A DNA stretch of 64,000 bases from Acidobacteriota bacterium (GCA_040005235.1 JBDTZG010000028.1:6940-70939), one strand, 5' to 3'; positions 23,210 through 63,891 are shown, counted from the stretch's first letter. The notes: generated from the sequence alone by a model not told the origin. Numbers and translations: made by a program.

Positions 23210-23214
23210 CCACG

Positions 23215-23797: not shown

Positions 23798-23799
23798 GG

Positions 23800-24592: not shown

Positions 24593-24711
24593 GGACCGGG
24601 TCTGCCCGTCCCATGGGATCCGGGATTCGGACCGGACACCACGGGCTGAGAGCTCGCGAGAGATAGGATCTCTTCTCCTGAGAGAGCACACAGGAAAGGG
24701 AAGCCTCACAG

Positions 24712-48114: not shown

Positions 48115-48427
48115 GACCCCCGCCTTTGGGTCCAGCTATTTGGAGGGTGATTCTAGTCTGGTTGCTCCACTTCTGTCCAATTTTATCCACTAGGGGCCAC
48201 CAGGACCCCGCGGTGGGCTCTGAAACCTCTTTCCGCAGGGTCGGCGCGGGCGGCAGAGTCGGCACGGGTGTTGAGTACCCGGTCCGGGCACGAGGCGTAC
48301 CTCAGGGGCTGTCGGCGCAAAAATTTGCGAAATTTGCCGCCCAGGGGTCCCGCTGTCTCGCATTGACGCGCCGAAGCACCGTAACATTGCAGAGACCACA
48401 CAATTGATTCGACCGAGGAGACCCCCC

Positions 48428-49888
48428 GTGTCGCAAAATCCTGTGCCGCTGCTTGCCGTGGTGTTGCGGAATCTCCGCGAGCGAGCCGGCTGGACCCAAG
48501 TCCGGCTCGAACGCGAGGCTCGCCTCAGCAAGGGATCGCTCTGCCGGCTGGAGAAGGGCAGCCAGACGGTCGATCGTTTCCTGCTCAATCGGCTGGCGAA
48601 GGTGATGAGAATCGCCGAGGGTGACGTGGAACAGGCGCTCGCAGTGCTGGAGCAGCTCCCGGCGGAGACCGGCGCCGGTTCGTCCGCGGACCTGCCGGTT
48701 CGCGACCGGCAGACGATCGAAACCGTCAGCGCGCGCTTTTCCCGCATGGTTCGCGAGAAGGCCCAGAACCGAATCGGGGGGAAGGTCCGCGCCCGGCGCT
48801 GGCGTCTCGACCGCGCGGCGGCCGCCGTGGCGTGGCAGCGGCTGCGCAAAATGCCCTCCGAGGATCGCCGGCTGATCGTTAAAGCGGTTGAGGCCTTTCA
48901 CACCTGGGCGGTGGTGGAACGGCTTTGCGAGGAGAGCGTAAGGGCGGCGGCCAGCGATATGGAGGAGGCCCGTAGGCTGGCGCAGCTTGCCCGGCAGGCC
49001 TCGACGGCCGCGAGCGGTGCCGAGCGAAGATATAAGTCGCTCGAAAATTACGCGGCGGCCTTCGAAGCGAACGCCTGGTGCGCTGCCGGCGAATTTCGGA
49101 AAGCCGAGCAGATTTTTGCCGAGGTCGATGCGCTCCATGGAGAAGGGCTGGACATCGCGGCAGTACCGGTCGATTGGGCCAGGCCACTGATCTTTCGAGC
49201 GGTGCTTATGATTTATCGGGCGAACCTCGATCCGGCATTGGAATGGCTGAACGAGGCGCTTTCGCTCACTCGCTCGCCGACCGTCAAGACTTGGGCGTTA
49301 ATCTGGCGAGCCGCTGTGCTCAAGCGGAAGCTCCAATTTCCCGCGGCGCTTGAGGAGCTGGAAAAGGCTCGGCCGTACGCCGAGCTTGCAGGCGATGCCC
49401 GGCTTCGATGGGCCATCGCCTTCAATGAAGCGGGTTATTTATGCGAAGCCGGCCATTTGGCGGAGGCTGCCGCCCGCCTTCCAGCCCTGAAGCTGGCAGC
49501 GTTGGAGCTCGGAGGAGCTCTGGATCGCCTGCGGCTCCGCTGGTTGACCGCGAGAGTGGCTGCTGCTTCAGGCCTGTTCCAGGAAGCCGCGACGAACCTC
49601 TCCGAGGTTTGGAATGCCTTTGCCGACCGGAACCTCTGGCTCGACGCGGCGATCGCGGTTCTCGAGCTGGCCAGCATCAACCTGGAGATGGGTCTGTCTG
49701 CCCAGGTCAAGAAGCTCGCCACGGCATCTGCTCACGTCTTCGCGGCGCAGACCCTGCCCGACCACCTTCTCGCGGCGGTTCGACTATTCTGGCAGGCCGC
49801 CCTTCAGGAAGCGGCCACTTCACAAATGGCGCGACAGCTGGTTGGGGACCTTCGCCGCGCCATGGTGGCAAACGCCGAAGCCTCCTGA
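48428..49888 (+). CDS. XRE-type HTH + conserved 'TWAVVERLC' middle domain + C-terminal TPR-like regulator (long paralog 1)
   Basis: GTG start after a gaggaga RBS. The HTH is LLAVVLRNLRERAGWTQVRLEREARLSKGSLCRLEKG. The conserved block FHTWAVVERLCEES is shared with three paralogs. The C-terminal ~250 aa is alpha-helical repeats (AAFEANAWCAAGEFRKAEQIF..., LRWAIAFNEAGYLCEAGHLAEAA). Confidence 0.75.
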   Translation: MSQNPVPLLAVVLRNLRERAGWTQVRLEREARLSKGSLCRLEKGSQTVDRFLLNRLAKVMRIAEGDVEQALAVLEQLPAETGAGSSADLPVRDRQTIETVSARFSRMVREKAQNRIGGKVRARRWRLDRAAAAVAWQRLRKMPSEDRRLIVKAVEAFHTWAVVERLCEESVRAAASDMEEARRLAQLARQASTAASGAERRYKSLENYAAAFEANAWCAAGEFRKAEQIFAEVDALHGEGLDIAAVPVDWARPLIFRAVLMIYRANLDPALEWLNEALSLTRSPTVKTWALIWRAAVLKRKLQFPAALEELEKARPYAELAGDARLRWAIAFNEAGYLCEAGHLAEAAARLPALKLAALELGGALDRLRLRWLTARVAAASGLFQEAATNLSEVWNAFADRNLWLDAAIAVLELASINLEMGLSAQVKKLATASAHVFAAQTLPDHLLAAVRLFWQAALQEAATSQMARQLVGDLRRAMVANAEAS

Positions 49889-49907
49889 AGTCGTCGTCTC
49901 GCTTGGG

Positions 49908-50195
49908 CTAGGTCCCACACAGACCGTTCGGGTTGATCTCGCAGCCGACTTCGCCGAGAGGAGGCTTACTTCTCGGGCGACCGGAGTCGGAAGCACTGCG
50001 TCCGTCTGGGCTTGCGCCGCGGCGCCCGCTGGGCTCGATCTCGCAACCGCTCGGCGCCCACAGCGCGGAAAAGAATCTCCCGGCTTTGGCGAGCAGGTTC
50101 CCGAGATCCCACGGTGCGGCGGAGGCCTGGGTCGGGAAGGCGAGGACCACGACGAGAAGCAAGAGCGGCAGACGGCGGGGCGACGAAGCGGACAT
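49908..50195 (-). CDS. Small secreted Cys-repeat peptide (precursor), paralog 1
   Basis: 95 aa. The signal peptide is MSASSPRRLPLLLLVVVLAFPTQASA. The mature part begins APWDLGNLLAKAGRFFSALW and contains GCEIEPSGRRG ... GCEINPNGLCG repeats. It is homologous to 58620..58952 and convergent with the long regulator, whose stop is 20 bp away. Confidence 0.6.
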   Translation of the reverse strand: MSASSPRRLPLLLLVVVLAFPTQASAAPWDLGNLLAKAGRFFSALWAPSGCEIEPSGRRGASPDGRSASDSGRPRSKPPLGEVGCEINPNGLCGT

Positions 50196-50395
50196 GACCG
50201 ACTCCTATTCCGAGGGGACCGGCGCCGCGGCCTCCATGGCCGAACGGGCACCCTGCGAGTTCTTCCAGGCGCGCCTGGGCGAAGCTTGGACGCAAAATTT
50301 TGTGCTGCCAGGCGTACGGTGGGGTCTATCTTAGGAGCAAGCCCCGCCCTGCACGCTCTTTCGATACGATTCCCTCCAGAAACTCGGGAGGTGAC

Positions 50396-51220
50396 ATGAA
50401 CGACGCCTTGGATCGCCGCGCGGCAGGCTTGGTGATGCAGTTGTTTCGCTTCATGGCCGGCCGCCACCAGCACGACCTGAGCGAACGGACCGGGATCGAC
50501 ATAAAGCGGATTTCGCGTTACGAGCAGGGAAAAGTTCTGCCTCTTCGGCCGACGCTCGAACGACTCGCTGCGGGCGTCGGCGTCTCCGCGACCCGGCTCG
50601 ATCAGCTTCTCGCGTTGATTCGCACCGTGTGCGCCGAGGGCGAGGCGGCGACCGCCCAAAAGGAGCACGCCACAGCAGACCCCGACGAGTCCGATTGGCC
50701 GGACGATCTCGCCGAGCTGGCGGCGGAGATCGCCGAAGACCTACAGCCCGAGATTTACCAAGCCCTGAAGGAATTGAACGCCGAGCTGAACGCGCCGCCT
50801 CCGCCACTCGCCCCGGAAGCGGCGCGCGCCCAGGCTCGGGAGCTATGGGGAAGGTTCGAACCCTTGCCGGATCGCGTTCGCCGCCTGGTGATCGAACATG
50901 GCAAGGAGTACCAAACCTGGGCCTTTTGCGAACGGCTCTGCGAAGCAAGCCTCGACGCCGGATCGCGCGCGCCGGAGGACGGTCAGGCCTTGGCCGACCT
51001 GGCGCTCTCGGTCGCCGAGGCCGCCCAAGGGTCCGACGTGCTGCGCCAGCGCCTGACCGCCTTCGCCCTCGCCTGCGCCGCCCACGCGGATGTCCTCGCC
51101 GGGGACTCGGAAGAGGCCGCCGAGAAGCTGGGCCGGGCCAAGGCGCTCTGGACGGCCGGGGACGGCACCGACGATCTCGACCTCGGCCAGATCGCCGATC
51201 TGGTGCCCGCCGACTCGTAA
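50396..51220 (+). CDS. XRE-type HTH + 'TWAxxERLC' domain protein without TPR (short paralog 1)
   Basis: gggagg RBS. The HTH is LVMQLFRFMAGRHQHDLSERTGIDIKRISRYEQG. It has a poly-Pro linker (PPPPLAP) and then ELWGRFEPLPDRVRRLVIEHGKEYQTWAFCERLCEAS. It is divergent from the peptide gene across a ~200-bp intergenic region. Confidence 0.7.
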   Translation: MNDALDRRAAGLVMQLFRFMAGRHQHDLSERTGIDIKRISRYEQGKVLPLRPTLERLAAGVGVSATRLDQLLALIRTVCAEGEAATAQKEHATADPDESDWPDDLAELAAEIAEDLQPEIYQALKELNAELNAPPPPLAPEAARAQARELWGRFEPLPDRVRRLVIEHGKEYQTWAFCERLCEASLDAGSRAPEDGQALADLALSVAEAAQGSDVLRQRLTAFALACAAHADVLAGDSEEAAEKLGRAKALWTAGDGTDDLDLGQIADLVPADS

Positions 51221-51229
51221 GGAGTCCCC

Positions 51230-51631
51230 TCAGTTCGGCGCCCGCCGACTTGCGTCCGGCGGAAGCTCCGGCGGCGGCGGGCCGAGACGGCGCTCCAGGT
51301 CGGCGATCTTCTGTTCGAGATCTTCCGCCAGGATTTCGAGAGCCTGACAGAGCCGGTCCTCTTCCTCGGTCACCGTCGAGAGCCGCCGGGTCGCGGCGAG
51401 CCCGGCGAACGCCTGCTTTGTATGCCAGAGGTCGTCGATGCCGGCGCGCGTTCCCGCCTTGAGCCACGGTTCTCCGAACCCCGAGCCGTCTTCCAGCTCC
51501 AGCGCTTCCTCGGCGATCTTTTCGCAGGCATCCTGGACGCGTTGGCGCAAACCCGGCCGGGTGAAATGGACCAGGACCGACTCGCGGAACGGCGCCATCT
51601 CTCTCCAGCGGCGCTTGATCGGGTTGGTCAT
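51230..51631 (-). CDS. Hypothetical protein (coiled-coil C-terminus)
   Basis: 133 aa with plausible composition (…LEILAEDLEQKIADLERRL…). It is the last of three co-oriented ORFs with 4-nt and 13-nt overlaps. Confidence 0.35.
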   Translation of the reverse strand: MTNPIKRRWREMAPFRESVLVHFTRPGLRQRVQDACEKIAEEALELEDGSGFGEPWLKAGTRAGIDDLWHTKQAFAGLAATRRLSTVTEEEDRLCQALEILAEDLEQKIADLERRLGPPPPELPPDASRRAPN

Positions 51632-52062
51632 CCTGGGGATGCCCGTCGCTCAGTCCGCACGGCGGCCCGGTGCCGGCCCAGGCGTCTCTCCTGCACCAGA
51701 CCCAGGAATGCGTCCCGATTCGCGGCCCCATGGGTCATCAGCGCCGCGAAGACCCGAAGGTTCAGACGGGCACCTTCCGGGGGCGGTGTACCTTCCAAGA
51801 GGGCGAGCAGTCGGGCGGCCAGCTCCGGCAAGATGCCCCCTCGCCCCTGGCGCAACAATACGGTTCCCAGCTCGATGTAGGCGTCCGCCGCTGCCATCAC
51901 CTCGCCCGATGCGCGCCAGGTTCCCGCGGCGCGGCCGAACAGTCGCGCCGCCTCTTCGAGGTTCCCATCGTCCCGCTCGCGCTCGGCCCGGTCGAAGATC
52001 TCTCCGGCGGCCCGCCGCAACTCGCCGGGTGCGAGGGGAGAGGCCGGACTTACAGAGGCCAT
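51628..52062 (-). CDS. Hypothetical TPR-like helical protein
   Basis: 144 aa with helical-repeat-like composition (EEAARLFGRAAGTWRASGEVMAAADAYIELGTVLL). It overlaps its neighbours. Confidence 0.35.
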   Translation of the reverse strand: MASVSPASPLAPGELRRAAGEIFDRAERERDDGNLEEAARLFGRAAGTWRASGEVMAAADAYIELGTVLLRQGRGGILPELAARLLALLEGTPPPEGARLNLRVFAALMTHGAANRDAFLGLVQERRLGRHRAAVRTERRASPG

Positions 52063-52499
52063 TCCATTCCTTTTCTGTGCTTCCGGACGTCCGCGAGCAA
52101 CTCGCCTAGTAACGGCGAGCTCGGCGGGGTGATCTCGAGCAAGAGCAAAAGGTTGGAAAAAAGCTCGATTTCCGGCGGCGCCACGGCGAGCGTCGCCGGC
52201 TTGGCGGCGAGCCAGTCCGGCAGGTCGACACGTTCAAGGCGATAGACCGCGGCCAGCGAGAGCGCCGCTAGCCCTTCGAGCCAGGGTTGCTCCGCTTTGC
52301 CGAAGGCATGGACGGCGAGAATAAAACTCTCTTCTGCCTGGGACAGGTTGCCCGCCGCCGCGGCGCGCTCGGCAAAATCCATCGAGCGCCAAGCCAACCG
52401 GAAAAAAGCCGGATGCGCCGGTTCCTTAGCCGGCGCATCCGCGGGCCCTGCGAGCGCGAGAGGGGGTGCGGGTCGCCCGCAGGGGAAAAAGGAGTCCAT
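52050..52499 (-). CDS. Hypothetical protein
   Basis: 149 aa. It is the first of the three co-oriented overlapping ORFs. No recognisable motif. Confidence 0.3.
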   Translation of the reverse strand: MDSFFPCGRPAPPLALAGPADAPAKEPAHPAFFRLAWRSMDFAERAAAAGNLSQAEESFILAVHAFGKAEQPWLEGLAALSLAAVYRLERVDLPDWLAAKPATLAVAPPEIELFSNLLLLLEITPPSSPLLGELLADVRKHRKGMEWPL

Positions 52500-52694
52500 G
52501 CGTGCGAGGGTAGGTCCAGGGATTCAGCTTTCGCGCTAGCCTGCCGCTCGTGGATGGCGTAGTTATCCATTTCGATAACATTTCTTGGGATGCCGGGGAA
52601 CTTTCCCAGCTCGTCATGCCGAGCGAGAGCTCTGCACACTCCAGCGGAGGCGGGGGGGAGTTCCGGCACTACATTCAATATTGCAGGAACCACC

Positions 52695-53810
52695 CTAGGG
52701 CTGCAGGCCGCCGTTCCACGAAGTGTCCTTGAGCAGATCGGCCCAATTCACGTCGGCGCTCAGCACATTGAATTCGTCGCTGCCGTCCGAGAAGACGTTG
52801 AGGTGTGCCGCCCGCCGAAAGACCTCCTCGCCTTGAATTTCGAAGCCGGGCCGTAGCGGCGGCAAGATGTAGAGGCCCATCCACGGACTACCGGTTGGGT
52901 TACAGCCCGTCTGGCCGGAAGCGGTGCAGAAGGGGAGCGCCGTGATTTCGCCCGTCGTCAAGCGTCCCTGGGTATCGGTGTGCAGGCGCAGCAGGAAGGG
53001 GATTTCCAGGTCACTGTAGACACACACTCCGTCGTCATCGCAGGAAAGGGCAGAGTCATAGGCGTCAATCCGGTAAGTCAGCGGCTCCTCCGCCCGGTAG
53101 AGAGCGGTCTTGTAGGAAATAAAGGCGCAGAACGGATTGGGAATGGGTTCCGCCAGGCAGCCTGTCGGCCGAACCGTCCGCGCGAGGATCGAGTAGACCT
53201 TGAGGTCAAAGTCGGTCACTTCGGTATGGCAGGGAGAGAGTAGGTCGTCGACGGTCAAACCGCGTCCCGCGGTGTCCGCGTGGTCCGCCTGCGCGTCCTG
53301 GAGAGTGGTGATCCGAATCGAATTCTTCGGCTGAAAAGGGTCTGGCGGCTCCCGGGACAGGATGAGATCCACGAGCATCGAGAACCGGGTCGTCCCCTCG
53401 AGATTCGAAGACGCATCCCGCCGAACCAAGGTGGCCTGGGGCCGGCGATCCCTTCGGGGGTTCAAGAAGTCCTCGTCCTCGCGAAGGATCAGGTCGAACG
53501 CCAGCTGTTTCTCCTGTCGCTCGCGGTCGCCTTGAACCGTGGTGTGTCGCAACTGGCTGGTGCTGGCCAATCCTCTGTAGGTGCCGCCATTGGCGCTCGA
53601 CCGCCAGAGGAGGAGGCTCGACTCCCCGTAGGAAACCCCCATGCGGTGCAGCAACCTCCCCATTTGCCGCTCTTCGCAGGCGACCTGCTCGGACGTGAGG
53701 GGGCGGCCGAAGGGCTGGGCCACAGCATTGCGTACCGCACATGCGCCGAAGACCAGGGCCACGGCCCAAGCCGGCACCCGCCACCCTACGGCTGCAGGCC
53801 GCCGTTCCAC
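52695..53810 (-). CDS. Secreted protein of unknown function, 'WNGGLQP' family paralog A
   Basis: 371 aa with an N-terminal signal-like segment (AVALVFGACAVRNAVAQ). It is ~80-85% identical to the adjacent paralog B along its whole length (QPFG-PLTSEQVACEERQMGRLLHRMGVSYGE ... ADVNWADLLKDTSWNGGLQP). It contains several Cys. Confidence 0.7.
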   Translation of the reverse strand: MERRPAAVGWRVPAWAVALVFGACAVRNAVAQPFGRPLTSEQVACEERQMGRLLHRMGVSYGESSLLLWRSSANGGTYRGLASTSQLRHTTVQGDRERQEKQLAFDLILREDEDFLNPRRDRRPQATLVRRDASSNLEGTTRFSMLVDLILSREPPDPFQPKNSIRITTLQDAQADHADTAGRGLTVDDLLSPCHTEVTDFDLKVYSILARTVRPTGCLAEPIPNPFCAFISYKTALYRAEEPLTYRIDAYDSALSCDDDGVCVYSDLEIPFLLRLHTDTQGRLTTGEITALPFCTASGQTGCNPTGSPWMGLYILPPLRPGFEIQGEEVFRRAAHLNVFSDGSDEFNVLSADVNWADLLKDTSWNGGLQP

Positions 53811-54889
53811 GAGGTGTCCTTGAGCAGGTCCGCCCAGTTGACGTCGGCACGTAGAATGTTCAAGTCAGGAAAGGCAACCGAGAAAAGGTTCAGGTGGGCC
53901 GCACGCCGAAAGACTTCCTCTCCCTGAACCTCGATGCCGGGTCTCAGGGGAGGTAAGACGTAAAGGCCCATCCAAGGACTGTCCTCCGGGCTGCATCCGG
54001 TTTGGCCCGACGCTGTGCAAAACGGCAGCAGCGAGACCTCCCCGGATGCCAACCGGCCTTGGGCGTCGGCTTGGATGCGAAACAGCAGTGAATTCTGCTC
54101 GTCGCTGTAAACGCACACGCCGTCTTCGTCGCAGGACAACGAGGAGAGATATACGTCGGCCCGATAGGTCAGCGGCTCCTCCGCGCGGTAGAACGCGGTT
54201 TTAAAGGAAATGAATCCGCAGACCGGGTTGGGAATGGGTTCCGCCAGGCAGCCCGTCGGCCGCACCGTCCGGGCGAGGATCGAGTAGACCTTTAGGTCGA
54301 AATCGGTCACCTCAGTATGGCAGGTATTCAAAAGGTCGTCGACGGTCAGACCGCGTCCGGCGGTGTCCGCGTGGTCCTCCGGCGCTTCCTGGAGGGTGGT
54401 GATCCGGATCGAATTCTTTGGGTGGAAAGGGTCGGGCGGCTCCGGGGACAGGATGAGATCTACGAGCATCGAGAACCGGGTCGTTCCCATCGGGTCGAGG
54501 TTCGACGCCGCGTCCCGCCGGACCAGCGTCGCCTGCGGGCGGCGTTCCCGCCGGGGGTTCAAGAAGTCTTCATCGGCGCGGAGAATCAGGTCAAACGCCA
54601 GCTGTTTCTCATCGCGCATCCGGATGTCTACGGTCGTCGTAGGATCGAAATAAAGGTGGTCCGTACTGGCCAAGCCTCTGTAGCTGCCGCCGTTGGCCGC
54701 CGATCGCCAAAGGTAGAGGCCAGCCTCGCCATATGAGACCCCCATACGATGAAGCAATCGCCCCATCTGGCGCTCCTCGCAGGCGACCTGCTCGGACGTG
54801 AGGGGGCTGCCGAAGGGCTGGGCCGCCATAATTCCCGGGGCGATGATTACCAGGAAGAGAATCGCGAACAACGCGCTTTTGGGTTTCAT
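53786..54889 (-). CDS. Secreted protein of unknown function, 'WNGGLQP' family paralog B
   Basis: The start is the internal Met MKPKSALFAILFLVIIAPGIMAAQPFG, a clear signal peptide. 367 aa. It is tandem with paralog A. The upstream 103 aa of the track ORF is read-through. Confidence 0.75.
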   Translation of the reverse strand: MKPKSALFAILFLVIIAPGIMAAQPFGSPLTSEQVACEERQMGRLLHRMGVSYGEAGLYLWRSAANGGSYRGLASTDHLYFDPTTTVDIRMRDEKQLAFDLILRADEDFLNPRRERRPQATLVRRDAASNLDPMGTTRFSMLVDLILSPEPPDPFHPKNSIRITTLQEAPEDHADTAGRGLTVDDLLNTCHTEVTDFDLKVYSILARTVRPTGCLAEPIPNPVCGFISFKTAFYRAEEPLTYRADVYLSSLSCDEDGVCVYSDEQNSLLFRIQADAQGRLASGEVSLLPFCTASGQTGCSPEDSPWMGLYVLPPLRPGIEVQGEEVFRRAAHLNLFSVAFPDLNILRADVNWADLLKDTSWNGGLQP

Positions 54890-55321
54890 AGCTTCCCCGC
54901 TGAACCTGTCTTCTGTTGGACCTGGAGAACGATGTCGAAGGAATAGAACGGCGAAACGATCTCGCAACTTCCCCCGTTGCAGGTTTTGTGGATGGGATCC
55001 CAATTGATGGTCTGGACTGCCGTCATGGTTCCCGTTGCCGGCGTGACCCACTGGACCTCGAACCGATCGGCCGTCGGTCCGAGGTTCAAGAGCGTCAAGC
55101 GGTCTTGGTATTTCTGCGCCAGCCAGATCCGCGCGTCGAAAGCGTTGCGCGGGAGAAATATCGGTTTGGCGCTCGGAGACGTGGACTCTTTGGGGCATCC
55201 GTTCGCAGTGAACTCCGCCTCGGGCGCGTTCGATGCCGTGCTGGCCGCGCAGCGGATCGTGCTGTGGTGTAGATAGAGCAGGAAAAGCCGGTTCGGCTCC
55301 GGTCTCCGACCTGGATCGGCA

Positions 55322-56821
55322 TCAATCGGTATCCGTCGGAGATTGAGGGCCTTGATGTAGGTCGGGTCTCGCAGCGCTATTGGGCAGCCCTCCAGACCAA
55401 GCTGACCGGGACGAGGTGAGGCGCCCGAGCGGCAGCGCGTTGACGAATTTCTTGAGTACGCCGAGTTGGCGCCGAATGGTCGCGGGGGTGTTCGGGTCGC
55501 CTCCGGAGAGATATCCGAAATGGTCGTAGGTGGCGCCCTGGTCGAACAGAAACTCCCAGGCTTCGGCGCGCGCCGGTTCGGCGAGCTTTTCTGTCAGGGC
55601 GCCGTTGGTATGGGCGCGGGTGCCGCTCTTGCCTCCGACATCTGGGTTGCCGATGAACTGACCGGCGCCTTTGGTCGTAAACGGCTGTACCGCCACCAAA
55701 TGCCCGCCGGCGGCCAAGCGCGGGTATTTCGCTTCCTGAAAGGTGACCTGGGCAATCATGTCGCGCTGCCACTTGGCGACCTCGAGGGGATCGACGGTCT
55801 GGGCCTCCGGCTCGTTGGCGATCTCCCAATAGACGGTGTCGAAGCACCAGAGTTCTTGGACCGTCCACTCGATCACTTTGGCCTGGGCCACGCGCATGCG
55901 CTCGTTCGTCAGGGCCTCCTGGGTGCCTCGCGTGTCGTGGGTCACGAAGTACTCGGGCTTTGAGAACTTCACCGTCTCGAACGTCCCGTCCGACTTCGGC
56001 ATCATCCCCTTGCCGCCCCAGGGACCCTGGGAGAAGAAATCTCCCTCGAACGGCGCGAAGATGGTCACTTCGACGATCATCTTCCTCGGGTCCTGGGCGT
56101 AGGCCACGACATCGCGCAAGCGTTGGAAATACCGCGTGTTCGGCTTGTCCAGGCGCCAGAACGGGTAGGCGTTGGCCGGGAAGTTGGCGCAGTCGGGGCT
56201 CGCCACGGCGCTCGGGCAATAGAGGAACGGGACGTTGTTCGGGTTTTTCTCTCCGGCCAGGGCGATCCAGAGGCGGAGCTTGTTCAGGCCCGCTTCGAAG
56301 GCGGCTTGGATCGTCGTGGGGTAGTTGGTCCAGTTGCATTTGTCGGAGGAGAGTTCGAGGTGGCAGCCGTTGTCAGCCGAGACGCCGACGAGGGTCTGGA
56401 TCGTGTTGCGGTACGAAAAGTAGCGCGAGGCGAAAGGCAGGGCGGCGGTCGTTTTGCCGATCTTGATCGGGGTGATCGTCTGCGTGATGTTGCCGCAACC
56501 GGTGGCGGAAATCGTGGGATCGGCCGGAACGTCGGGGTCGGTGCCCAGCAGCTCGGGCGGATAGAGATCCTCCGAGTCGAGCGAATTCGGGTCGCCGTCG
56601 TAGGGGAGCAAGTCGTCGCCGAGGGTCCACAGCTCGGCGGGCAAGCTGGGGTCGGTGGTCGAGCCACCGTCGCCGAAGACGGAAGAGAGGGGTGGCTCTT
56701 CTTCGGGTCCGGGTGGGGGTTGGGCGGGAAGGGGGGCACCGACCGAGAGGAACGAAAGAAAGATGAAGGCGAGGGTCGCACGGTGGCAGAGGGATAAGAG
56801 TAGCGAGCGAGTTCGGTCCAC
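55322..56821 (-). CDS. Secreted glycoside hydrolase family 5-like protein
   Basis: The signal peptide is MDRTRSLLLSLCHRATLAFIFLSFLSVGAPLPAQ, followed by an acidic/Pro linker. The GH5 acid/base signature context is VYWEIANEPE. 499 aa. Confidence 0.55.
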   Translation of the reverse strand: MDRTRSLLLSLCHRATLAFIFLSFLSVGAPLPAQPPPGPEEEPPLSSVFGDGGSTTDPSLPAELWTLGDDLLPYDGDPNSLDSEDLYPPELLGTDPDVPADPTISATGCGNITQTITPIKIGKTTAALPFASRYFSYRNTIQTLVGVSADNGCHLELSSDKCNWTNYPTTIQAAFEAGLNKLRLWIALAGEKNPNNVPFLYCPSAVASPDCANFPANAYPFWRLDKPNTRYFQRLRDVVAYAQDPRKMIVEVTIFAPFEGDFFSQGPWGGKGMMPKSDGTFETVKFSKPEYFVTHDTRGTQEALTNERMRVAQAKVIEWTVQELWCFDTVYWEIANEPEAQTVDPLEVAKWQRDMIAQVTFQEAKYPRLAAGGHLVAVQPFTTKGAGQFIGNPDVGGKSGTRAHTNGALTEKLAEPARAEAWEFLFDQGATYDHFGYLSGGDPNTPATIRRQLGVLKKFVNALPLGRLTSSRSAWSGGLPNSAARPDLHQGPQSPTDTD

Positions 56822-57158
56822 GGCGCTGTCCTTTCAAGGTTTCCGCGTTACGCGGAAGACTGCTGGAACGGTAGCAGCGCCGACGATATTTTCGCAAACA
56901 ATTTCATCACATTCGGTATGGCTTTCAGATTTCTGCGGCTCTGGGGTGACCTGGGAACTGAGACGGATGGGAGCGGGCGTTTTCTGCCCGCGGGGCGATG
57001 ACGATGAACGGTGAGGACCCTAAGAGCCAAATGCTCCCAATGAGGAAACCAGGTTTCCTCTCTGTGCGGCGGGCAGGCGTCCCAATTTATTTGTTGTCAC
57101 GAAAAGTGCCTCAGCGGCAACAAGATGTATTAAAGACACCAGACCCCGGAGAACCGCG

Positions 57159-58613
57159 ATGCCCAAGGTGGACCTGCCGCCGACGAATGCGGCGCTATTG
57201 ATTTTGCGCATCCTGTGTCGCCTGACACAGGATGAGTTCGGCGAGCTGACCGGCATGAAGAGCCGGATCGTCGAGATCGAGAATGGCCGGTATGTCCTTA
57301 AGCGCGCCGAGCTCGAAGATCTGGTGGAGGAGCTCAAGGTGTCGGCCTACGCGGTGCCGGTCGCCCTCGGCCTATCGGAGCTGGTGTTGCCGTCGACCGA
57401 CAAGACCCCCCACCCCTGGGAGGCGACGCCCGACGCGCGGTTTCAGGCCGAGCGCGCGACCCTCGAATCGTCCGCCATCGTGCGCCGTCTGTTCCTCGCC
57501 GAAGCGCGCGCGGAGCGCTACGCGGCGGACCGCGAGGAGGCCGAGCGCCTCTGGAAGCTGCTTGCGCCGCTCAATCGCGACCGGCGGCGGGTGATGGCCC
57601 GGATCGTCGATTTCTCGACCTGGGCGGTGGTCGAGCGCCTCTGCATCGAGAGCCTCAGGGGAGCGCCTCGGGATCCCGGGGCCGCCCGCTCGCTCGCCGA
57701 GCTGGCCGTTGAGGTGGCCCAGAGGATTCCGCCGCTGCCCAGGTTCAGCGATCGGGTGGAAGGGTACGCCCAGGCCCACTTGGGCAACGCCTTTCGAGTC
57801 GGGAACGACTTTGACGAGGCGGTTCGCGCTTTCGCGCTCGTCGCGAAACTTTGGATCGAGTTCCTGCCGGGCGAGGCCTGCCCGTTTGACGTGACGCTGA
57901 TCCCCGACCTAGAAGCTTCTCTGCGCCGCGATCAGCGTCAATTCTCCTTAGCGTTCGCTGGGCACGACCGGGCTCTTTCCTTCGCTGTCGAGGATGCGAT
58001 CCGCGGGCGCATCCTCCTCAATAAGGCAGTGACATTCGAGCATTCCGGCGATCCAGTTGGTGCGGTTGCAACTCTCAGCGCTGCTCAGCCTCTTATCGAC
58101 ACGAGCAACGAAACCCGGCTGGGTTGTGTCGCGCGTTTCAACTTGGCGGTCAACCTCCTCCATCTTGGAAACGCCTTAGATGCCGAGCCGCTGATCGCCG
58201 AGGTGCGGGCGCTTGCGATCGAACAGCGAAACGAGCTTGACCTGATCCGGGTCCTTTGGCTCTCCGGCCGCCTTGCCGCCGCGCAAGGAGATCGGGCGAA
58301 GGCGATGGTCTCGATCGATGACGCGGCCTGTCGCTTCGCCGAACAGGGCCTCGGATATGACGCCGCACTGGCGGTGCTCGACCTCGCGGGGCTGCTCTTG
58401 GAAGAAGGCAACCCGAGAGAGGCAGCCCGGAGGGTGGCCGAGGTGCAACCCACTTTCCACGTGCGAAACATTCACCGGGAGGAACTGGCGAGCCTGGTTC
58501 TGTTCCTCCAAGCCGTCGAAACCGAAGCGGCGACCGCCGCGCTGGCGCGCGCGGCGGCCGAGGCCTGGAGGTTGTTCGGCACGCCCGTTCCTTTCGGAAG
58601 TCTGGCCGACTGA
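57159..58613 (+). CDS. XRE-type HTH + 'TWAVVERLC' domain + TPR-like regulator (long paralog 2)
   Basis: The HTH is LLILRILCRLTQDEFGELTGMKSRIVEIENG. The conserved block is RIVDFSTWAVVERLCIESLRG. The C-terminal helical repeats are YAQAHLGNAFRVGNDFDEAVRAF ... LAVLDLAGLLLEEGNPREAARR. 484 aa. It has the same architecture as 48428..49888. Confidence 0.75.
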   Translation: MPKVDLPPTNAALLILRILCRLTQDEFGELTGMKSRIVEIENGRYVLKRAELEDLVEELKVSAYAVPVALGLSELVLPSTDKTPHPWEATPDARFQAERATLESSAIVRRLFLAEARAERYAADREEAERLWKLLAPLNRDRRRVMARIVDFSTWAVVERLCIESLRGAPRDPGAARSLAELAVEVAQRIPPLPRFSDRVEGYAQAHLGNAFRVGNDFDEAVRAFALVAKLWIEFLPGEACPFDVTLIPDLEASLRRDQRQFSLAFAGHDRALSFAVEDAIRGRILLNKAVTFEHSGDPVGAVATLSAAQPLIDTSNETRLGCVARFNLAVNLLHLGNALDAEPLIAEVRALAIEQRNELDLIRVLWLSGRLAAAQGDRAKAMVSIDDAACRFAEQGLGYDAALAVLDLAGLLLEEGNPREAARRVAEVQPTFHVRNIHREELASLVLFLQAVETEAATAALARAAAEAWRLFGTPVPFGSLAD

Positions 58614-58619
58614 AATGAA

Positions 58620-58952
58620 CTACTGGCCGCAGCGACCCTCTGGGTCGACGACGCAACCCGCGTCGCGAAGGATCGGCGCCGGGGCACTCGACGAACCGCA
58701 GCGGCCGTAGGGATCGAGGCTGCAGCCCACGTCGCTGAGGATCGGCACCGGGGCGCTCGACGGGCCGCGGCCGCCGTGGGGGTCGAGGCTGCAGCCCTCC
58801 TCCTCCCAGAGGGCCGAAAGAAACGACCAGCCGCGGGCGAACAGGTCGGGGAGGGTGCGATCGAGCGGCAAGGCGCCGGCCGGGAAGGCACTGAGGAGGA
58901 AGAGGGCTAGCAGAGCGACGGCGAGGGCGAGGTGACGCTTCGGTTGGGGCAT
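58620..58952 (-). CDS. Small secreted Cys-repeat peptide (precursor), paralog 2
   Basis: 110 aa. The signal peptide is MPQPKRHLALAVALLALFLLSAFPAGA. The mature part is LPLDRTLPDLFARGWSFLSALWEEEGCSLDPHGGRG...VGCSLDPYGRCG...AGCVVDPEGRCGQ, i.e. three ~20-aa repeats. It is convergent with the long regulator, whose stop is 7 bp away. Confidence 0.6.
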   Translation of the reverse strand: MPQPKRHLALAVALLALFLLSAFPAGALPLDRTLPDLFARGWSFLSALWEEEGCSLDPHGGRGPSSAPVPILSDVGCSLDPYGRCGSSSAPAPILRDAGCVVDPEGRCGQ

Positions 58953-59028
58953 GGCGGTGGGCTCCTGGTCAGCCCGGGAACCTCCGGCCGGGATGGCCGG
59001 CGGCCCGGTACGAAGGGGTTCAGAGGGT

Positions 59029-59046
59029 AACCCAAGTTTTTGGGTT
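59029..59046. promoter_or_regulatory. Perfect 18-bp palindrome AACCCAAgtttTTGGGTT ~20 bp upstream of short HTH paralog 2; candidate operator in the peptide/HTH divergent promoter
   Basis: Read directly from the sequence: 7-bp arms with a 4-nt spacer. It is AT-rich against ~68% GC. Confidence 0.4.
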
Positions 59047-59067
59047 CATTTTTCTCTTGGAGGGATC

Positions 59068-59955
59068 ATGGAACGGAAATCCGGCAGAACGCGAGACGTT
59101 CGCTCAGGACTCAGTGCGGCACCCACCCCTGGCGCCGCCGCGAAGGGGGGAAGGGCCGCGGCCAAAGCGCGGGACGCCGAGTACTCGGCTCTGTTGGTCC
59201 GGTATATGGATGCGACGGTCGGCCCGCGGCACGACCAGTTCGCGGAGTTGGTCGAGATCAGCGCGGCGCGGGCGAGCCTCTACCGCTACGGCTACAAGGT
59301 GCCCCGGCCCGAGACGAAGGCCCGTTTCTCCGGCCGGGTCGGGCTGCCGATCGAATGGTTCGAGGCGATGACCGCCGACTCGTTGTTTCTCCGCGGCAAA
59401 AGCTCAAAGCCGGCGGGAAGTACTCCCGCAGCCCTGGCGGAAGACCTCTCCCGCCGGCTCGCGGGCCAGCTCGCCCCGCGGTTCGCGGCGTTGCGCAGCG
59501 TAGCCCCCGCCGCCCCTCCTCCTCCTCCTCCTTCGCTCGAACGGGCGGCGGCCGATCGAGCCGAGGCGGACCGGCATTGGACCGAAATCGAGCCGCTCAC
59601 CGCCGCCGAGCGCGCCCTCGCGGTGCCGGAGATCCCGAGGTTCCACTCCTGGGCGCTGGTCGAGCTGCTCTGCGGAAAAAGTGTAGAGGCCGCGCCCGTG
59701 TCGCCGGCCGAAGCGCTCGCCCTCGCCAAGCTGGCCATACGACTGGCCCGCCGGGTCCAAGCAAGCCAAGGATTTCGCGACCGCCTGATGGGCTACGCCC
59801 TCCTCCACTCGGCCGCCGCACTCAAGAGCCTGAACGACCTGCCGCGAGCCCGGGAAGCCCGCGCGCGCGGGCTACGGCTTTTCGCGGCGGGGCGGAAGGA
59901 GGATCCGGGGTTGCTGGATGAAGCGATCGCCGAGGGACTCGCGTCGTCGTCGTAG
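59068..59955 (+). CDS. XRE-type HTH + 'SWALVELLC' domain protein without TPR (short paralog 2)
   Basis: ttggaggg RBS. The HTH is YSALLVRYMDATVGPRHDQFAELVEISAARASLYRYGY. It has a poly-Pro linker (PPPPPPS) and then HWTEIEPLTAAERALAVPEIPRFHSWALVELLCGKS. 295 aa. It is divergent from the peptide gene across a ~115-bp intergenic region. Confidence 0.7.
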   Translation: MERKSGRTRDVRSGLSAAPTPGAAAKGGRAAAKARDAEYSALLVRYMDATVGPRHDQFAELVEISAARASLYRYGYKVPRPETKARFSGRVGLPIEWFEAMTADSLFLRGKSSKPAGSTPAALAEDLSRRLAGQLAPRFAALRSVAPAAPPPPPPSLERAAADRAEADRHWTEIEPLTAAERALAVPEIPRFHSWALVELLCGKSVEAAPVSPAEALALAKLAIRLARRVQASQGFRDRLMGYALLHSAAALKSLNDLPRAREARARGLRLFAAGRKEDPGLLDEAIAEGLASSS

Positions 59956-60023: not shown

Positions 60024-60584
60024 TCAGGGTGTGGATGCCTGAGCGAGGAAGGCACCAAAGACATCAGTAGGCACGTGGTCGATCTGGGCGCCGGGGCTGT
60101 TTGCGGCTTCAGAGAAGAAGTCCTCTATCGCTTGGACCGACCGAGCGAACGCATCGCTGCAAATTGTTGGAAATGCAGCGCCGAAGCCGAAGGTTTTTGT
60201 CACTTTGCTCGTGCCTTTCCTACCGAACCAAGTGACCGCGGAGACGAAGACTTCGCCTTGTCCTGGAACGTCCCGATAAGCGCAGTGGCCACGCTCGGAA
60301 CCGAATCGGTTCTCGGACAGGGCCTGCTGTAGCCGGCGGACGGCATCCGAAGTACCCCGGGCTCGAATCAGGGTCGTTTGGCCGGGCGACCGCTGGGTGC
60401 TGATCAACAGGCCATCGCGAAAGATGACGTAGTCGATATTTGTCTTGAAGCCGGTCACCTCGTCGTCGACGTGGGCCGTGCGACGAACGAGGTAGCTTTC
60501 GGGTGCCGGCGTCTGAGCCAGCGCCAGCGTGGGCAGGATCAGTGCCAGGGCATAGAGCCAGAAAACGGGTCTAGTTGCTCTCAT
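60024..60584 (-). CDS. Secreted protein of unknown function (tandem duplicate 1)
   Basis: The probable start is the Met of MRATRPVFWLYALALILPTLALAQTP (signal peptide). ~186 aa. It is ~85% identical to 60746..61324. Confidence 0.6.
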   Translation of the reverse strand: MRATRPVFWLYALALILPTLALAQTPAPESYLVRRTAHVDDEVTGFKTNIDYVIFRDGLLISTQRSPGQTTLIRARGTSDAVRRLQQALSENRFGSERGHCAYRDVPGQGEVFVSAVTWFGRKGTSKVTKTFGFGAAFPTICSDAFARSVQAIEDFFSEAANSPGAQIDHVPTDVFGAFLAQASTP

Positions 60585-60745
60585 ACGACACCTCCGGGGC
60601 GAGTATTCCACGGAACTACACGAACAATACCGGTTTGCCGGTTACAGCTTGTCAGTGGAGCGAGACATCCGGTTGTCGCCCAGGATTCTTACGGCGAAGG
60701 GACAAGCGGGCGCCGTCGAGGAGCGGGCGGCGCCCGGGCATGCAT

Positions 60746-63129: not shown

Positions 63130-63891
63130 TCACCCCCGGTGACGTTGCAGCAATGAGAACAGGTAGCGGATGCGGGTGAGAAGGTCGTCGGCCGCCCGCT
63201 CGAAGGCGGTTTCCCGCTCCTTGTCGGTGCCTTCGACGCCGGAAGGGTCGGGGATGCTCCAATGGATCCGGTTACGCGCACCGGGGAAGATGGGGCAGGA
63301 CTCGCGGGCGTTGTCGCAGACCGAAATCACATAGTCGAACGGTTGGTCGATAAATTCGTCCAGGGGCTTGGACCTCTGGCCGCCGATGTCGATGCCCCGG
63401 GCTGCCATGGTCTTGATCGCCAGCGGGTGCACACGGGTGACCTCGGTGCCGGCGCTCCGCACTTCGACCTGGTCGCCGGCCATGTGGCGCAAGATCCCCT
63501 CGGCCATCTGAGATCGCGCGCTGTTGTGGGTACAAAGGAAGAGCACCCGGCCCCGCCTTCCTGCCTCGGTCAGCGGCAGCTCCCGGGTGTCGGGCTCACT
63601 CCCAAGACCTGGATGCAAAATTTCACCTGTGCTCATGAGCATCCCCTTCAGTCGGTCCAGATCCAAGCTGTAGTAGACATCCCGTCGATCCGCGGCGCTG
63701 CGCCGCTCCTTGACCAGAGCGAATTCCCGCAGCTTCCGAAGGTGGTAGGAGACGAGGTTCTGCGGTTGCTGGAGCACCCCGACCAGCTCCTGCACGCGCC
63801 GATCGCTGTACGCCAGAGCTTCGAGAAGCTTCCAGCGTTGCTCATCGGCAAGGAGCTTGAGGAACGGGGGAAAGGCCGAGGTTGCGTCCAT
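63130..63891 (-). CDS. ArsR-family wHTH regulator fused to LMW-PTP-type arsenate reductase (ArsC)
   Basis: The N-terminal ArsR HTH is LADEQRWKLLEALAYSDRRVQELVGVLQQPQNLVSYHLRKLRE. The C-terminal CX5R P-loop is LFLCTHNSARSQMAEG, plus a downstream Cys (VISVCDNARESCP), typical of thioredoxin-coupled ArsC. 253 aa. Confidence 0.8.
   Translation of the reverse strand: MDATSAFPPFLKLLADEQRWKLLEALAYSDRRVQELVGVLQQPQNLVSYHLRKLREFALVKERRSAADRRDVYYSLDLDRLKGMLMSTGEILHPGLGSEPDTRELPLTEAGRRGRVLFLCTHNSARSQMAEGILRHMAGDQVEVRSAGTEVTRVHPLAIKTMAARGIDIGGQRSKPLDEFIDQPFDYVISVCDNARESCPIFPGARNRIHWSIPDPSGVEGTDKERETAFERAADDLLTRIRYLFSLLQRHRG

Follow-up and report, generated by a model that had tools for sequence, protein, structure and literature searches.

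A three-gene cassette that is widespread yet undescribed occurs twice in the 64,000-nucleotide stretch of Acidobacteriota DNA analysed here (the window). In each copy, the gene for a long regulator (Reg1) faces a convergent peptide gene, which in turn is divergent from the gene for a shorter regulator (Reg2). The best reading of this arrangement is an RRNPP-like receptor–propeptide system, apparently operating in a diderm phylum and without demonstrable homology to the RRNPPA receptors. To our knowledge, peptide quorum sensing through RRNPP systems has so far been known only from Gram-positive Firmicutes. An earlier note on this DNA had proposed an RRNPP-like receptor–peptide arrangement outside that group; synteny, a TPR superhelix and covariation between one peptide residue and one regulator residue speak for the proposal, whereas membership in the RRNPPA family does not follow.

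Two modules and their relatives

Module A consists of LongA (Reg1; + strand, 48404–49888, 494 aa, with an uncertain TTG start), PepA (− strand, 49908–50195, a 95-aa pre-pro-peptide) and ShortA (Reg2; + strand, 50396–51220, 274 aa from an ATG within an ORF that opens at 50300). Module B comprises LongB (Reg1; + strand, 57159–58613, 484 aa), PepB (− strand, 58620–58952, a 110-aa pre-pro-peptide) and ShortB (Reg2; + strand, 59068–59955, 295 aa), whose ATG is preceded by a conserved GGAGGG ribosome-binding site. The stop codons of the long regulator and peptide genes are 19 nt apart in module A and 6 nt apart in module B. All six ORFs claimed for these two same-order loci exist, at or close to the positions first proposed, and the source genome, predicted to be acidobacterial, is indeed a MAG from the Acidobacteriota (locus tags ABJC13_*). 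BLASTP bears out the suspected paralogy: LongA and LongB share 30% identity over 329 aa (E=3e-30), ShortA and ShortB 34% (E=1.5e-7) and PepA and PepB 36% (E=6e-10), and long-versus-short comparisons give E=1e-6 to 4e-10.

The regulator–peptide pairing is conserved in other Acidobacteriota when searched from both directions. A convergent peptide gene is present in 63–67 of 75 evaluable genome loci, and all three genes occur together in 56; at ~8 loci the regulators have no recognisable peptide gene. Peptide genes lie adjacent to a regulator in 48 cases and elsewhere in 2. Genomes carry several copies of the cassette, whose range spans Thermoanaerobaculia and Holophagales (79 of 79 genome loci are from Acidobacteriota); a search for plasmid or viral relatives found none. 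Within ±4 kb across the 79 loci, nothing recurs except the regulator and peptide families, with no recurring immunity, export or modification gene, and the surveyed neighbourhoods contain no conserved transporter or peptidase. ‘GH5-like’ secreted neighbours had been suggested as the regulon, an idea left unsupported because these genes match no Pfam or NCBIfam family and are missing between the modules in the closest related genome. A known anti-phage defence or phage module was rejected, as PADLOC and PHROG returned generic HTH matches only (capH-like, E=1e-4; phrog_3 repressor HTH).

The divergent promoter/5′-UTR region between PepB and ShortB (58953–59067) is almost invariant in an alignment of six orthologous cassettes. 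It contains a ribosome-binding site for each gene, two GC-rich hairpin-like elements and the palindrome AACCCAAGTTTTTGGGTT (59029–59046), which also scores as terminator-like. The corresponding PepA/ShortA region (50196–50395) carries the palindrome GCAAAATTTTGTGC (50292–50305), kept between the window and L002 although the surrounding stretch has diverged. The pattern CAAANNTTTG, picked post hoc, has only two occurrences in the window.

A family of multi-unit pre-pro-peptides

PepA and PepB belong to a family of 1,146 representative clusters with consistent architecture, for which we found neither a curated model nor a literature match. A Sec signal peptide is followed by an amphipathic helix and by 1–5 (usually 2–4) units of 12–13 residues with the consensus [DEK]xGCx[IL]DPxGxC; we call the residue after the first Cys x1. 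Linkers of 8–15 residues, rich in Pro, Ala and Ser, separate the units, the last of which lies at the C-terminus, and propeptides range from 95 to 170 aa (upper end approximate). The paired Cys are conserved in 87–98% of units and lost in some peptides, including unit 1 of both PepA and PepB. Judged from sequence features, both peptides have the predicted signal peptide: the n-region is basic, the core hydrophobic, and the A-x-A cleavage motif hardly varies across the family. In PepA, the signal peptide covers approximately residues 1–26 (...ASA|AP) and is followed by the FFSALW helix and two units, PSGCEIEPSGRRG (nt 50016–50054) and EVGCEINPNGLCG (nt 49914–49952). In PepB, the signal peptide (residues 1–27, ...AGA|LP, nt 58872–58952) precedes an amphipathic helix (residues 35–51, nt 58800–58850) and three units, EEGCSLDPHGGRG (58764–58802), DVGCSLDPYGRCG (58695–58733) and DAGCVVDPEGRCG (58626–58664); its AF2 model shows helices and a disordered chain with small hairpins. 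A disulphide probably closes each unit, and proteolysis probably frees the units as a set of near-identical peptides. The conserved amphipathic helix has no part in the model proposed below.

This GC-rich genome has many spurious ORFs, the small ORFs match no family model, and their adjacency to regulators might have been coincidental. The comparative data effectively refute that reading, to which we give almost no credence: GC3 is 0.77 in PepA and 0.86 in PepB, and dN/dS is 0.37 for PepA against its L002 orthologue and 0.22–0.46 among PepB orthologues, compared with 0.31 for LongB. The ribosome-binding site is conserved, and the 1,146 clusters and the 48-to-2 preference for adjacency add to the case that these are real genes, as the earlier note had held.

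The repeated core-like units also resemble multi-core RiPP precursors, and the peptide could be one, its Cys, Asp or Pro residues being targets of enzymes from other loci and the regulators being specific to that pathway. Acidobacteriota, Thermoanaerobaculia included, are rich in RiPPs (PMC13083261), and a LanC-like gene lies ~1.2 kb from module B in L001. That gene, however, has no counterpart in the window and is itself next to a separate 57-aa Cys-rich ORF. RiPP leaders seldom take the form of a classical Sec signal peptide, and the ±4-kb survey of 79 loci revealed no recurring modifying enzyme, transporter or peptidase. A RiPP origin is therefore very improbable in our view.

Two lineages of TPR regulators

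The earlier note assigned an HTH domain and a TWAVVERLC block to the regulators. Pfam models (HTH_31, HTH_3 and HTH_19) detect the HTH across LongA, LongB and ShortA, with HTH_31 in LongA at E=1e-8 and both HTH_31 and HTH_3 in ShortA; the divergent HTH of ShortB can still be aligned with those of the other three regulators. The block itself was located in both long regulators. LongA, orthologues of which are present in L001 and L002, has an XRE HTH, a long helix, TWAVVERLC (residues 167–175, nt 48902–48928) and a TPR superhelix. In LongB (dN/dS=0.31 among orthologues), Pfam finds the XRE-type HTH and weak TPR matches; the HTH (residues 8–76, nt 57180–57386) is followed by a helix (91–135), TWAVVERLC (residues 154–162, nt 57618–57644) and ~8 TPR-like repeats (residues 155–473, nt 57621–58577). 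An AF2 model of the long regulator agrees with the proposed TPR fold, placing ~8 TPRs in a superhelix after the HTH. Rap and NprR are among the best bacterial structural matches of this model, but eukaryotic LGN/Pins and APC subunits match equally well or better; at the level of the model, the similarity to Rap and NprR is generic to TPR proteins. Likewise, a Reg1 sequence profile found generic TPR and HTH structures and otherwise only a marginal RapH repeat when searched for homology to RRNPPA receptors.

The short paralogues had been described as lacking TPRs. Alignments show that the distal repeats are indeed gone, but that approximately two TPR-like helix pairs are kept, together with the HTH, the long helix and the TWA block (TWAFCERLC after a Pro-rich linker in ShortA; SWALVELLC after a poly-Pro linker in ShortB). 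Both proteins stop at a conserved boundary directly before the LEASLRRDQR motif of the family. They belong to Reg2, an old and distinct lineage that always keeps its HTH, has lost its distal TPRs repeatedly and remains full-length in about one-third of cassettes.

Covariation links peptide and regulator

Peptide residue x1 tracks one Reg1 column, corresponding to LongB V291 (nt 58029–58031) at TPR position 9 of repeat 4, in helix A4 (residues 279–295, nt 57993–58043, + strand); the LongA equivalent is A304 (nt 49313–49315). The pairing is sterically complementary, with F/Y opposite Gly and S/T/A opposite Ile/Thr. This signal was found by data exploration, and it held across independent switches in divergence-stratified sister-pair contrasts as well as on held-out cassettes, which are kin of the training set (median 62% identity to the nearest training regulator). 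It is the sole robust residue pair: the +9/344 and −3/345 pairs weaken after stratification, and mutual-information signals at x2, x5 and −3 fail the sister-pair test. Overall regulator and peptide divergence correlate weakly (rho 0.15), and helix A4 has the top ratio of within-cassette to between-cassette identity. Residue 291, placed by its TPR sequence register, would lie on the concave, ligand-contacting face, and the covariation suggests that the Reg1 repeat domain binds the peptide. Because full-length Reg2 usually carries a residue matching the Reg1 291 equivalent, the two regulators may respond to one and the same peptide; their matched A4 helices could also have arisen by gene conversion between the Reg1 and Reg2 genes.

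The covariation bears on a rather unlikely alternative in which the peptide acts outside the cytoplasm as an effector: it might be antimicrobial or serve in competition, form an array of protease-inhibitor-like loops, work as an adhesin or buffer metals or redox state. The XRE regulators would then only control peptide transcription, with the TPR domain sensing another cue and the peptide never meeting the regulators. Regulators commonly adjoin their own targets, TPR similarity is generic, the host is diderm with no importer conserved nearby, and stable secreted effectors typically have such disulphide-bracketed loops, with Pro/Ala/Ser linkers between them and hypervariable residues within them. 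An effector role leaves unexplained, however, both the complementary, held-out covariation between x1 and a concave-face TPR residue across independent switches and the fact that each of many paralogous peptides has its own TPR regulator pair; nor does the cassette come with genes for immunity, export or modification.

A proposed model of peptide sensing

On balance, we lean toward each module being a self-contained peptide-receptor cassette, with ligand binding and autoregulation as follows. The small gene would encode a pre-pro-peptide that its signal peptide directs to export by the Sec pathway, leaving a mature part composed, in the window modules, of the amphipathic helix and 2–3 unit copies. 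The Cys-bracketed units would be closed by disulphides and then cut free by proteolysis. Each unit would serve as ligand of the Reg1 TPR superhelix, and of Reg2 where that protein is full-length, with x1 packing against position 9 of repeat 4 (LongB V291), as the covariation suggests. Ligand binding would alter the HTH regulators at the divergent promoter common to the peptide gene and Reg2, creating an autoregulatory loop, and other targets would presumably be affected too. Reg2 would most likely act as a promoter-bound partner or competitor of Reg1 and not as a ligand-responsive regulator. In a diderm organism, the peptide must somehow re-enter the cytoplasm; the outer membrane, the Cys-bracketed units and the lack of an importer or peptidase conserved near the cassettes count against the model.

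Re-import and outer-membrane crossing would be unnecessary if the TPR domain bound the peptide ahead of export, still inside the producer, either to gauge precursor level or secretion capacity or to hold it like a chaperone, in a cell-autonomous feedback. Such binding is consistent with the covariation; the cytoplasm would keep Cys reduced, which suits extended-chain binding, and a precursor with several units could tie Reg1 to Reg2 or join several copies of Reg1. Against it, the near-invariant Sec signal and A-x-A site and the paired Cys conserved in 87–98% of units suggest selection on an exported, oxidised product, and pure feedback would not readily explain why a genome has many orthogonal, paralogous cassettes. 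We regard this alternative as distinctly unlikely.

More broadly, and with somewhat less than even confidence, we propose that peptide sensing by these cassettes represents the first cytoplasmic-receptor, encoded-peptide communication family in a diderm phylum, one built on two receptors and on multi-copy pheromones that are nonapeptide loops cyclised by a disulphide. If so, there are several implications. First, either RRNPP logic would have been invented independently here, or the cassette would be a deep outgroup able to root the RRNPPA family. Second, many orthogonal copies per genome would provide rich peptide ‘languages’ in Thermoanaerobaculia and Holophagales, and thus in abundant, mostly uncultured Acidobacteriota of soil and sediment.

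Comparison with known systems

RRNPPA pheromones are short, linear and unmodified and come from monoderm producers; they are exported, processed outside the cell, re-imported via Opp and bound in the concave TPR groove of receptors whose subfamilies, Rap excepted, carry an N-terminal HTH. Like the RRNPPA family (Rap, Rgg, NprR, PlcR, PrgX, AimR), Reg1 combines an N-terminal XRE-type HTH with a TPR superhelix, and several paralogous systems occur per genome. RRNPPA receptors have 5–9 TPR or TPR-like repeats in a right-handed superhelix (PMC9765709), a range that includes the ~8 repeats of Reg1, which in this respect resembles the HTH-9TPR class exemplified by NprR (PMC12700828). In RRNPP_detector-type searches, the propeptide gene encodes 10–100 aa, lies at −60 to +400 bp and has a secretion signal (PMC10075063). 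The adjacent small gene of the cassette has a Sec-type signal, and receptor size and intergenic distance fall inside the thresholds, as does PepA (95 aa), whereas PepB (110 aa) and many relatives exceed the length limit. RRNPPA variability is focused on one peptide position (PMC9765709), as it is in the cassette peptides, where sequence covariation suggests a concave-face contact.

By contrast, RRNPPA systems belong to Bacillota and their plasmids and phages, whereas the cassette resides in diderm Acidobacteriota and was not found on a plasmid or phage, has no detectable sequence homology to RRNPPA systems, and is structurally no closer to them than to LGN/Pins. Its propeptide is longer, with a conserved amphipathic helix and Cys-bracketed 9-residue loops, and each peptide gene lies between the genes for two paralogous regulators and converges on the receptor gene across a minimal spacer.

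In the Rgg2/Rgg3–SHP system of Streptococcus pyogenes, two paralogous receptors act at the same pheromone promoters. The cassette likewise has two paralogous HTH regulators per peptide signal, but both are encoded around the peptide gene and Reg2 often lacks the ligand-binding repeats. Like the tandem Phr propeptides Phr105 and Phr3T, the cassette precursor holds near-identical putative mature units behind one Sec signal, the last at the C-terminus; its units differ in having 12–13 residues, two Cys, an invariant D-P-x-G turn, 8–15-residue linkers and a processing scheme that is presumptive. Finally, generic XRE-HTH/TPR regulators and MalT-type TPR sensors show no systematic pairing with a secreted peptide gene, whereas the cassette regulators are paired with one that co-diversifies with them.

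Two three-gene modules and their peptide genes

All six open reading frames that the earlier note assigned to two modules are present in the window. In module A, LongA (48404–49888, + strand, 494 aa), a long XRE-HTH/TPR regulator, is followed by the convergent gene for the small peptide PepA (49908–50195, − strand, 95 aa), with the two stops 19 nt apart, and then by ShortA (50396–51220, + strand, 274 aa), a regulator paralogue divergent from the peptide gene. Module B has the same arrangement of LongB (57159–58613, + strand, 484 aa), PepB (58620–58952, − strand, 110 aa; stops 6 nt apart) and ShortB (59068–59955, + strand, 295 aa). The source is an Acidobacteriota MAG (NCBI locus tags ABJC13_*) whose nearest relatives are Thermoanaerobaculia MAGs. 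The paralogy claimed in that note is borne out by BLASTP for the long regulators (LongA/LongB, E=3e-30), the peptides (PepA/PepB, E=6e-10) and the short regulators (ShortA/ShortB, E=1.5e-7; long versus short, E=1e-6 to 4e-10).

In the module regulators, Pfam detects HTH domains of the XRE type and, weakly, TPRs; it has no matches to PepA or PepB; searches of the peptides and flanking secreted proteins against Pfam, NCBIfam, PADLOC and PHROGs returned only generic HTH or TPR. The small open reading frames are genuine genes. PepA and PepB have GC3 values of 0.77 and 0.86, in a genome in which GC3 marks coding frames; dN/dS among orthologues is 0.22–0.46 for PepB and 0.37 for PepA, with LongB close at 0.31; and ribosome-binding sites are kept upstream of PepB and of ShortB. 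The closing Cys of the first repeat unit is missing from PepA (window 50016–50054, GRRG) and PepB (58764–58802, GGRG), so that the Cys count is odd in both. In PepB orthologues this closing Cys is retained.

Conservation of the cassette in Acidobacteriota

Regulator–peptide synteny, the basis of the earlier note's proposal, is conserved in other Acidobacteriota from both regulator and peptide starting points. Regulator hits number more than 500 in all. Scanning a single genome from each species yielded 260 regulator-like stretches, and the best 79 loci, all of them from Acidobacteriota (Thermoanaerobaculia, Holophagales), were analysed; counting only these, an assembly carries up to six. A strict-motif peptide ORF lies directly after the long regulator, in convergent orientation, in 63 of the 75 loci with enough downstream sequence, or 67 once degenerate copies are counted. 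The median stop-to-stop gap is ~30 bp, and a second regulator paralogue, divergent from the peptide gene, is also present at 56 loci. Signal-peptide ORFs containing two or more units number 48 in the convergent position versus 2 elsewhere (652 kb). A reverse search from a distant peptide, P0141, recovered the peptide gene between a short HTH gene and, across an 8-bp gap, a convergent regulator of 493 aa. Computationally, the cassette is a conserved, autonomous three-gene unit.

No other recurring gene families were found within ±4 kb of the cassettes, and this absence of conserved accessory genes rules out a RiPP cluster or a defence island. That the peptide is a RiPP precursor served by maturases encoded elsewhere we regard as highly improbable. 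Plasmid or phage origin was rejected, as no cassette relatives occur on plasmids or in viral contigs. At eight loci (L031, L032, L034, L051, L055, L062, L064 and L070) a long regulator, frequently accompanied by a short HTH protein, stands without any recognisable peptide gene; ‘eavesdropper’-type receptors, decayed cassettes or assembly problems may account for them.

Genes around the modules

In the nearest relative of the window (L001/L002), both modules are adjacent, beside mraZ, with two small genes alone in between; the secreted-protein genes that part the modules in the window are missing. The suggestion that neighbouring secreted-protein genes form the regulon is unsupported, as they are not conserved beside the L001 cassettes. 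These genes include two tandem paralogue pairs of signal-peptide proteins, 52695–53810 (−)/53786–54841 (−) and 60024–60611 (−)/60746–61324 (−), which are 79% and 83% identical, respectively. Neither pair, nor the 499-aa (55322–56821) and 541-aa (61333–62958) secreted proteins, has a Pfam or NCBIfam match, and the ‘GH5-like’ label given to 55322–56821 falls for want of any family match.

Three small genes on the minus strand (51230–51631, 51628–52062 and 52050–52499; 133, 144 and 149 aa) also lie between the window modules. Those for the 133- and 144-aa proteins are the sole inter-module genes in L001 too; the 133-aa protein has homologues close to regulators at four other loci, and weak TPR_12 matches (E=1.8e-4) were obtained for the 144-aa protein. 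All three could be accessory parts of the cassette system. Directly past the ShortB orthologue, L001 carries a stretch missing from the window, in which a 57-aa ORF (8698–8871, −) ending ...SNCCCEPTSNQGGNGCYPKI neighbours a stand-alone LanC-like gene (7414–8625, +), a luciferase-like monooxygenase and a MacB-type permease; this stretch looks like a separate lanthipeptide-type RiPP locus.

Elsewhere in the window, a low-GC island (22385–24700; GC 0.57 versus ~0.67) contains an Acido-Lenti-1 sRNA match (Rfam RF01687, 23249–23293, minus strand, 39.6 bits), an ORF judged by eye to be IS200/RAYT-type transposase-like (23345–23797) and a 274-aa ORF with no function assigned (22385–23209). At 63130–63891 (−), an ArsR-type HTH is fused to an LMW phosphotyrosine phosphatase/arsenate-reductase-like domain (Pfam HTH_5 + LMWPc).

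A putatively secreted repeat-peptide family

At E ≤ 1e-3, a profile of PepB relatives matches 1,146 representative clusters, of which 383 pass E ≤ 1e-10; nearly all are of 85–170 aa and, where named, called ‘hypothetical protein’; with more than 1,100 clusters so annotated, the family merits its own family model. The signal peptide that the earlier note described holds across the family as a Sec-type signal with a near-invariant A-x-A site. The layout is constant: Sec signal, variable stretch, amphipathic helix (W-x-x-L-x-x-x-W) and one to five units, most commonly three, spaced 17–26 residues apart, with 2–4 residues after the last. Over 685 units the logo, in per cent, is [D47/E22/K20]-[E/A/N]-G98-C98-x1-[I54/L25]-D97-P-x-G-[R44/G21]-C87, of which DAGCVVDPEGRCG is an example, and some members have substituted Cys residues and retain the D-P-x-G core. 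The residue after the first Cys, x1, varies from peptide to peptide, and its uniformity within one peptide is 0.52 versus 0.11 expected.

In an AF2 model of PepB, whose low confidence (pLDDT 59) precludes a fold search, two helices lead into a disordered chain that forms small β-bridges where Cys residues bracket the units, which indicates that the peptide is not a globular secreted protein. Computation presents the repeat peptide as coding, signal-peptide-bearing and non-globular.

Regulator fold and lineages

The AF2 model of LongB (pLDDT 88, pTM 0.78) comprises an HTH (8–76), a long helix (91–135) and ~8 TPR-like helix pairs (155–473). Its structural matches are LGN (22.5), Pins (21.8), Rap105–peptide (20.0), NprR–NprX (18.9), RapH (18.3), MalT domain III (17.4), PlcR (16.2) and AimR (14.7), and the modelled fold is therefore of the peptide-binding type of TPR superhelix. 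The claim of an RRNPP-like TPR fold stands in part: Rap and NprR are among the best bacterial matches of the predicted superhelix, yet the likeness is generic, and no sequence homology is detectable: a regulator sequence profile found no RRNPPA receptor save a marginal single-repeat RapH match. The model supports assignment of the long regulators (Reg1) as cytoplasmic-type HTH + 8-TPR proteins.

Reg1, convergent with the peptide gene, and Reg2, the divergent paralogue, are two old lineages. The N-terminal half of Reg1 has its best match in another locus's Reg1 in 54 of 56 cases; Reg2 proteins mostly match other Reg2 best. For Reg1 and Reg2 together, the same-cassette partner comes out on top in only 6 of 112 cases. 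Among 56 complete cassettes, Reg2 is full length in 19, ‘short’ as in the window in 23, all stopping at one conserved boundary directly before the LEASLRRDQR motif of the family, and minimal, extending scarcely beyond the HTH, in 14.

Covariation of a peptide residue with the TPR concave face

Among 271 Reg1 columns, that of LongB residue V291 (column 291) ranks first in mutual information with x1 (z=5.9). Phe or Tyr at column 291 accompanies a majority of Gly at x1 (14/20 cassettes fit); Ser, Thr or Ala accompanies Ile, Leu, Val, Met or Thr (12/15); Asn accompanies Arg, Lys, His or Gln (6/7); and Arg accompanies Ser (5/8). The pairing follows a steric and chemical logic. In the window, LongB V291 occurs with x1 = S, S, V, and the equivalent Ala of LongA with x1 = E, E.

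The four rules were fixed in writing before fresh metagenome-contig cassettes were retrieved. In this held-out set of 37 non-redundant cassettes, they fit 22.2 of 27 evaluable cases, against a shuffle expectation of 7.9±2.0, and none of 20,000 shuffles scored as high. Because held-out cassettes are still kin of the training set, sister-pair contrasts, which withstand common descent, served as a control. With A4, the first helix of TPR repeat 4, left out of the pairing (105 cassettes, 52 pairs), 23 pairs contrasted in both x1 and column 291, 8 in x1 only, 3 in the column only and 18 in neither (p=2.2e-5; Bonferroni 0.008 over 354 columns), and the runner-up column was non-significant; pairing on all columns (106 cassettes) gave 26/7/2/17 (p=1.8e-6). 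The coupling is present in all three divergence strata (CMH z 4.69 versus 3.1 for the next column) and was matched by none of 20,000 within-stratum permutations. Close sisters switch column 291 and x1 together (L096 A/II versus L099 F/GG; L136 A/IIG versus L139 Y/GGG; L015 S/TT versus L019 F/GTG; and, for two cassettes of locus L046, T/IGII versus F/GAAG), as independent events.

The TPR register of LongB (L286, position 4; A290, 8; F293, 11; A302, 20; L306, 24; A309, 27) places residue 291 at position 9 of repeat 4. Positions 2, 5, 9, 12 and 13 are concave-face, specificity-determining positions, and position 9 touches ligand in HOP TPR co-crystals (PMC1261162). These computations show coevolution of a concave-face TPR residue with one peptide residue. 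The cassette could also be read as a peptide effector merely under the control of its two HTH proteins, which we consider unlikely alongside a coupling of this kind.

Despite their separate lineage, full-length Reg2 proteins carry the same residue class as their partner at column 291 in ~22 of 27 cassettes, and of the 16 helices A4 is the one most specific to its cassette (identity 0.77 within versus 0.38 between cassettes). This match would suit a pair of receptors that share a ligand, although the matched A4 helices could instead stem from local gene conversion.

Other couplings did not hold. Signals linking x2 to 323/324, x5 to 269–288 and −3 to 427–469 were lost in sister-pair contrasts, and those linking +9 to 344 and −3 to 345 failed stratification and multiple testing, with no chemical logic in either. 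The top mutual information for x5 falls on LongB 280, 284, 288 and 295 (window 57996–58043), on one A4 face at TPR positions 2, 6 and 13, which contact ligand in HOP co-crystals, with 2 and 13 also hypervariable on the concave face (PMC1261162); these x5–A4 signals, lost in the sister-pair contrasts, may reflect phylogeny. Overall regulator and peptide divergence are weakly correlated (mirror-tree/Mantel, rho 0.15; distant pairs, 0.07), and a clade-restricted permutation had no discrimination, as the sequences fell into a single cluster.

Intergenic DNA

The 115-bp PepB/ShortB intergenic region (58953–59067) is near-invariant in six orthologous cassettes whose proteins are 57–84% identical, and is conserved above the flanking coding sequence (six MAGs). 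It contains a palindrome, CCCAA-N4-TTGGG (59029–59046 extended), two GC-rich hairpin-like elements (GGGCT-N7-AGCCC and CCGGCC-N5-GGCCGG) and both ribosome-binding sites; the palindrome is followed by a T-run and also scores as terminator-like. The region may be a protein operator or may act at the RNA level, for instance as an attenuator or an RBS-sequestering hairpin.

In module A, a palindrome, GCAAAATTT(T/C)GTGC (50292–50305), is kept within an otherwise diverged intergenic region, and CAAA-N2-TTTG occurs in the window only in the module's two promoter regions. The case for an operator shared among cassettes is weak: the LongA-upstream copy of CAAA-N2-TTTG is deleted in L001, the two module B promoters carry differing palindromes and no family-wide promoter motif emerged. 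An Rfam search around the modules had no matches. No intrinsic terminator lies between the convergent stops, 6 and 19 nt apart, and the Reg1 and peptide transcripts probably overlap, which, speculatively, would permit antisense or interference effects.

A candidate signalling system and its relation to RRNPPA

The proposed pairing of a receptor with an exported peptide is partly supported and considerably strengthened, apart from its regulon. The peptide would be exported by Sec and form disulphides, proteolysis would free units from the precursor, and the peptide would return to the cytoplasm, where the ligand would govern pep/Reg2 promoter activity and Reg2 would sit on the promoter as a partner or competitor. 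A cytoplasmic-type receptor could also sense the precursor inside the cell, with no cell-to-cell signalling; given the family-wide Sec signal, we think this quite unlikely and favour the exported ligand.

Diderm bacteria are thought to signal mainly by small molecules. In the literature, quorum sensing by peptides that act on cytoplasmic TPR receptors is regarded as a feature of Firmicutes and of the mobile elements they carry (PMC10075063, PMC9765709, PMC12700828). The literature searched, with incomplete coverage, held nothing relevant on RRNPP in Acidobacteria or diderms or on quorum sensing in Thermoanaerobaculia, and no description of the cassette, in keeping with the earlier note's view of it as not a described system. 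If the interpretation is correct, the Firmicutes-only picture would be broadened by a large, conserved, internally coevolving family of receptors and propeptides in Acidobacteriota. Such a family would pose the question of how peptides pass two membranes in both directions and open a way into the regulation and social behaviour of a phylum that is abundant in the environment and little understood. The cassette is surprising for the field and testable at once, as the x1/position-9 ‘code’ (F↔G, S/T/A↔I/T etc.) would constitute a compact specificity rule. Structural phylogeny of RRNPPA calls for a remote structural outgroup, which could help to decide whether the ancestor had five TPRs or nine (PMC12700828), and the cassette regulator family is a candidate.

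Operationally, the cassette nearly matches the RRNPP signature (PMC10075063), and Phr propeptides provide a precedent for its tandem units (PMC11343458). Its regulators show no demonstrable homology to RRNPPA receptors and it lies outside their taxonomic range. It differs further in its peptide, with Cys-bracketed loops and a long, helix-containing precursor, in its two receptors and in the host cell envelope. The cassette is predicted to work like the RRNPPA systems as defined (PMC9765709).
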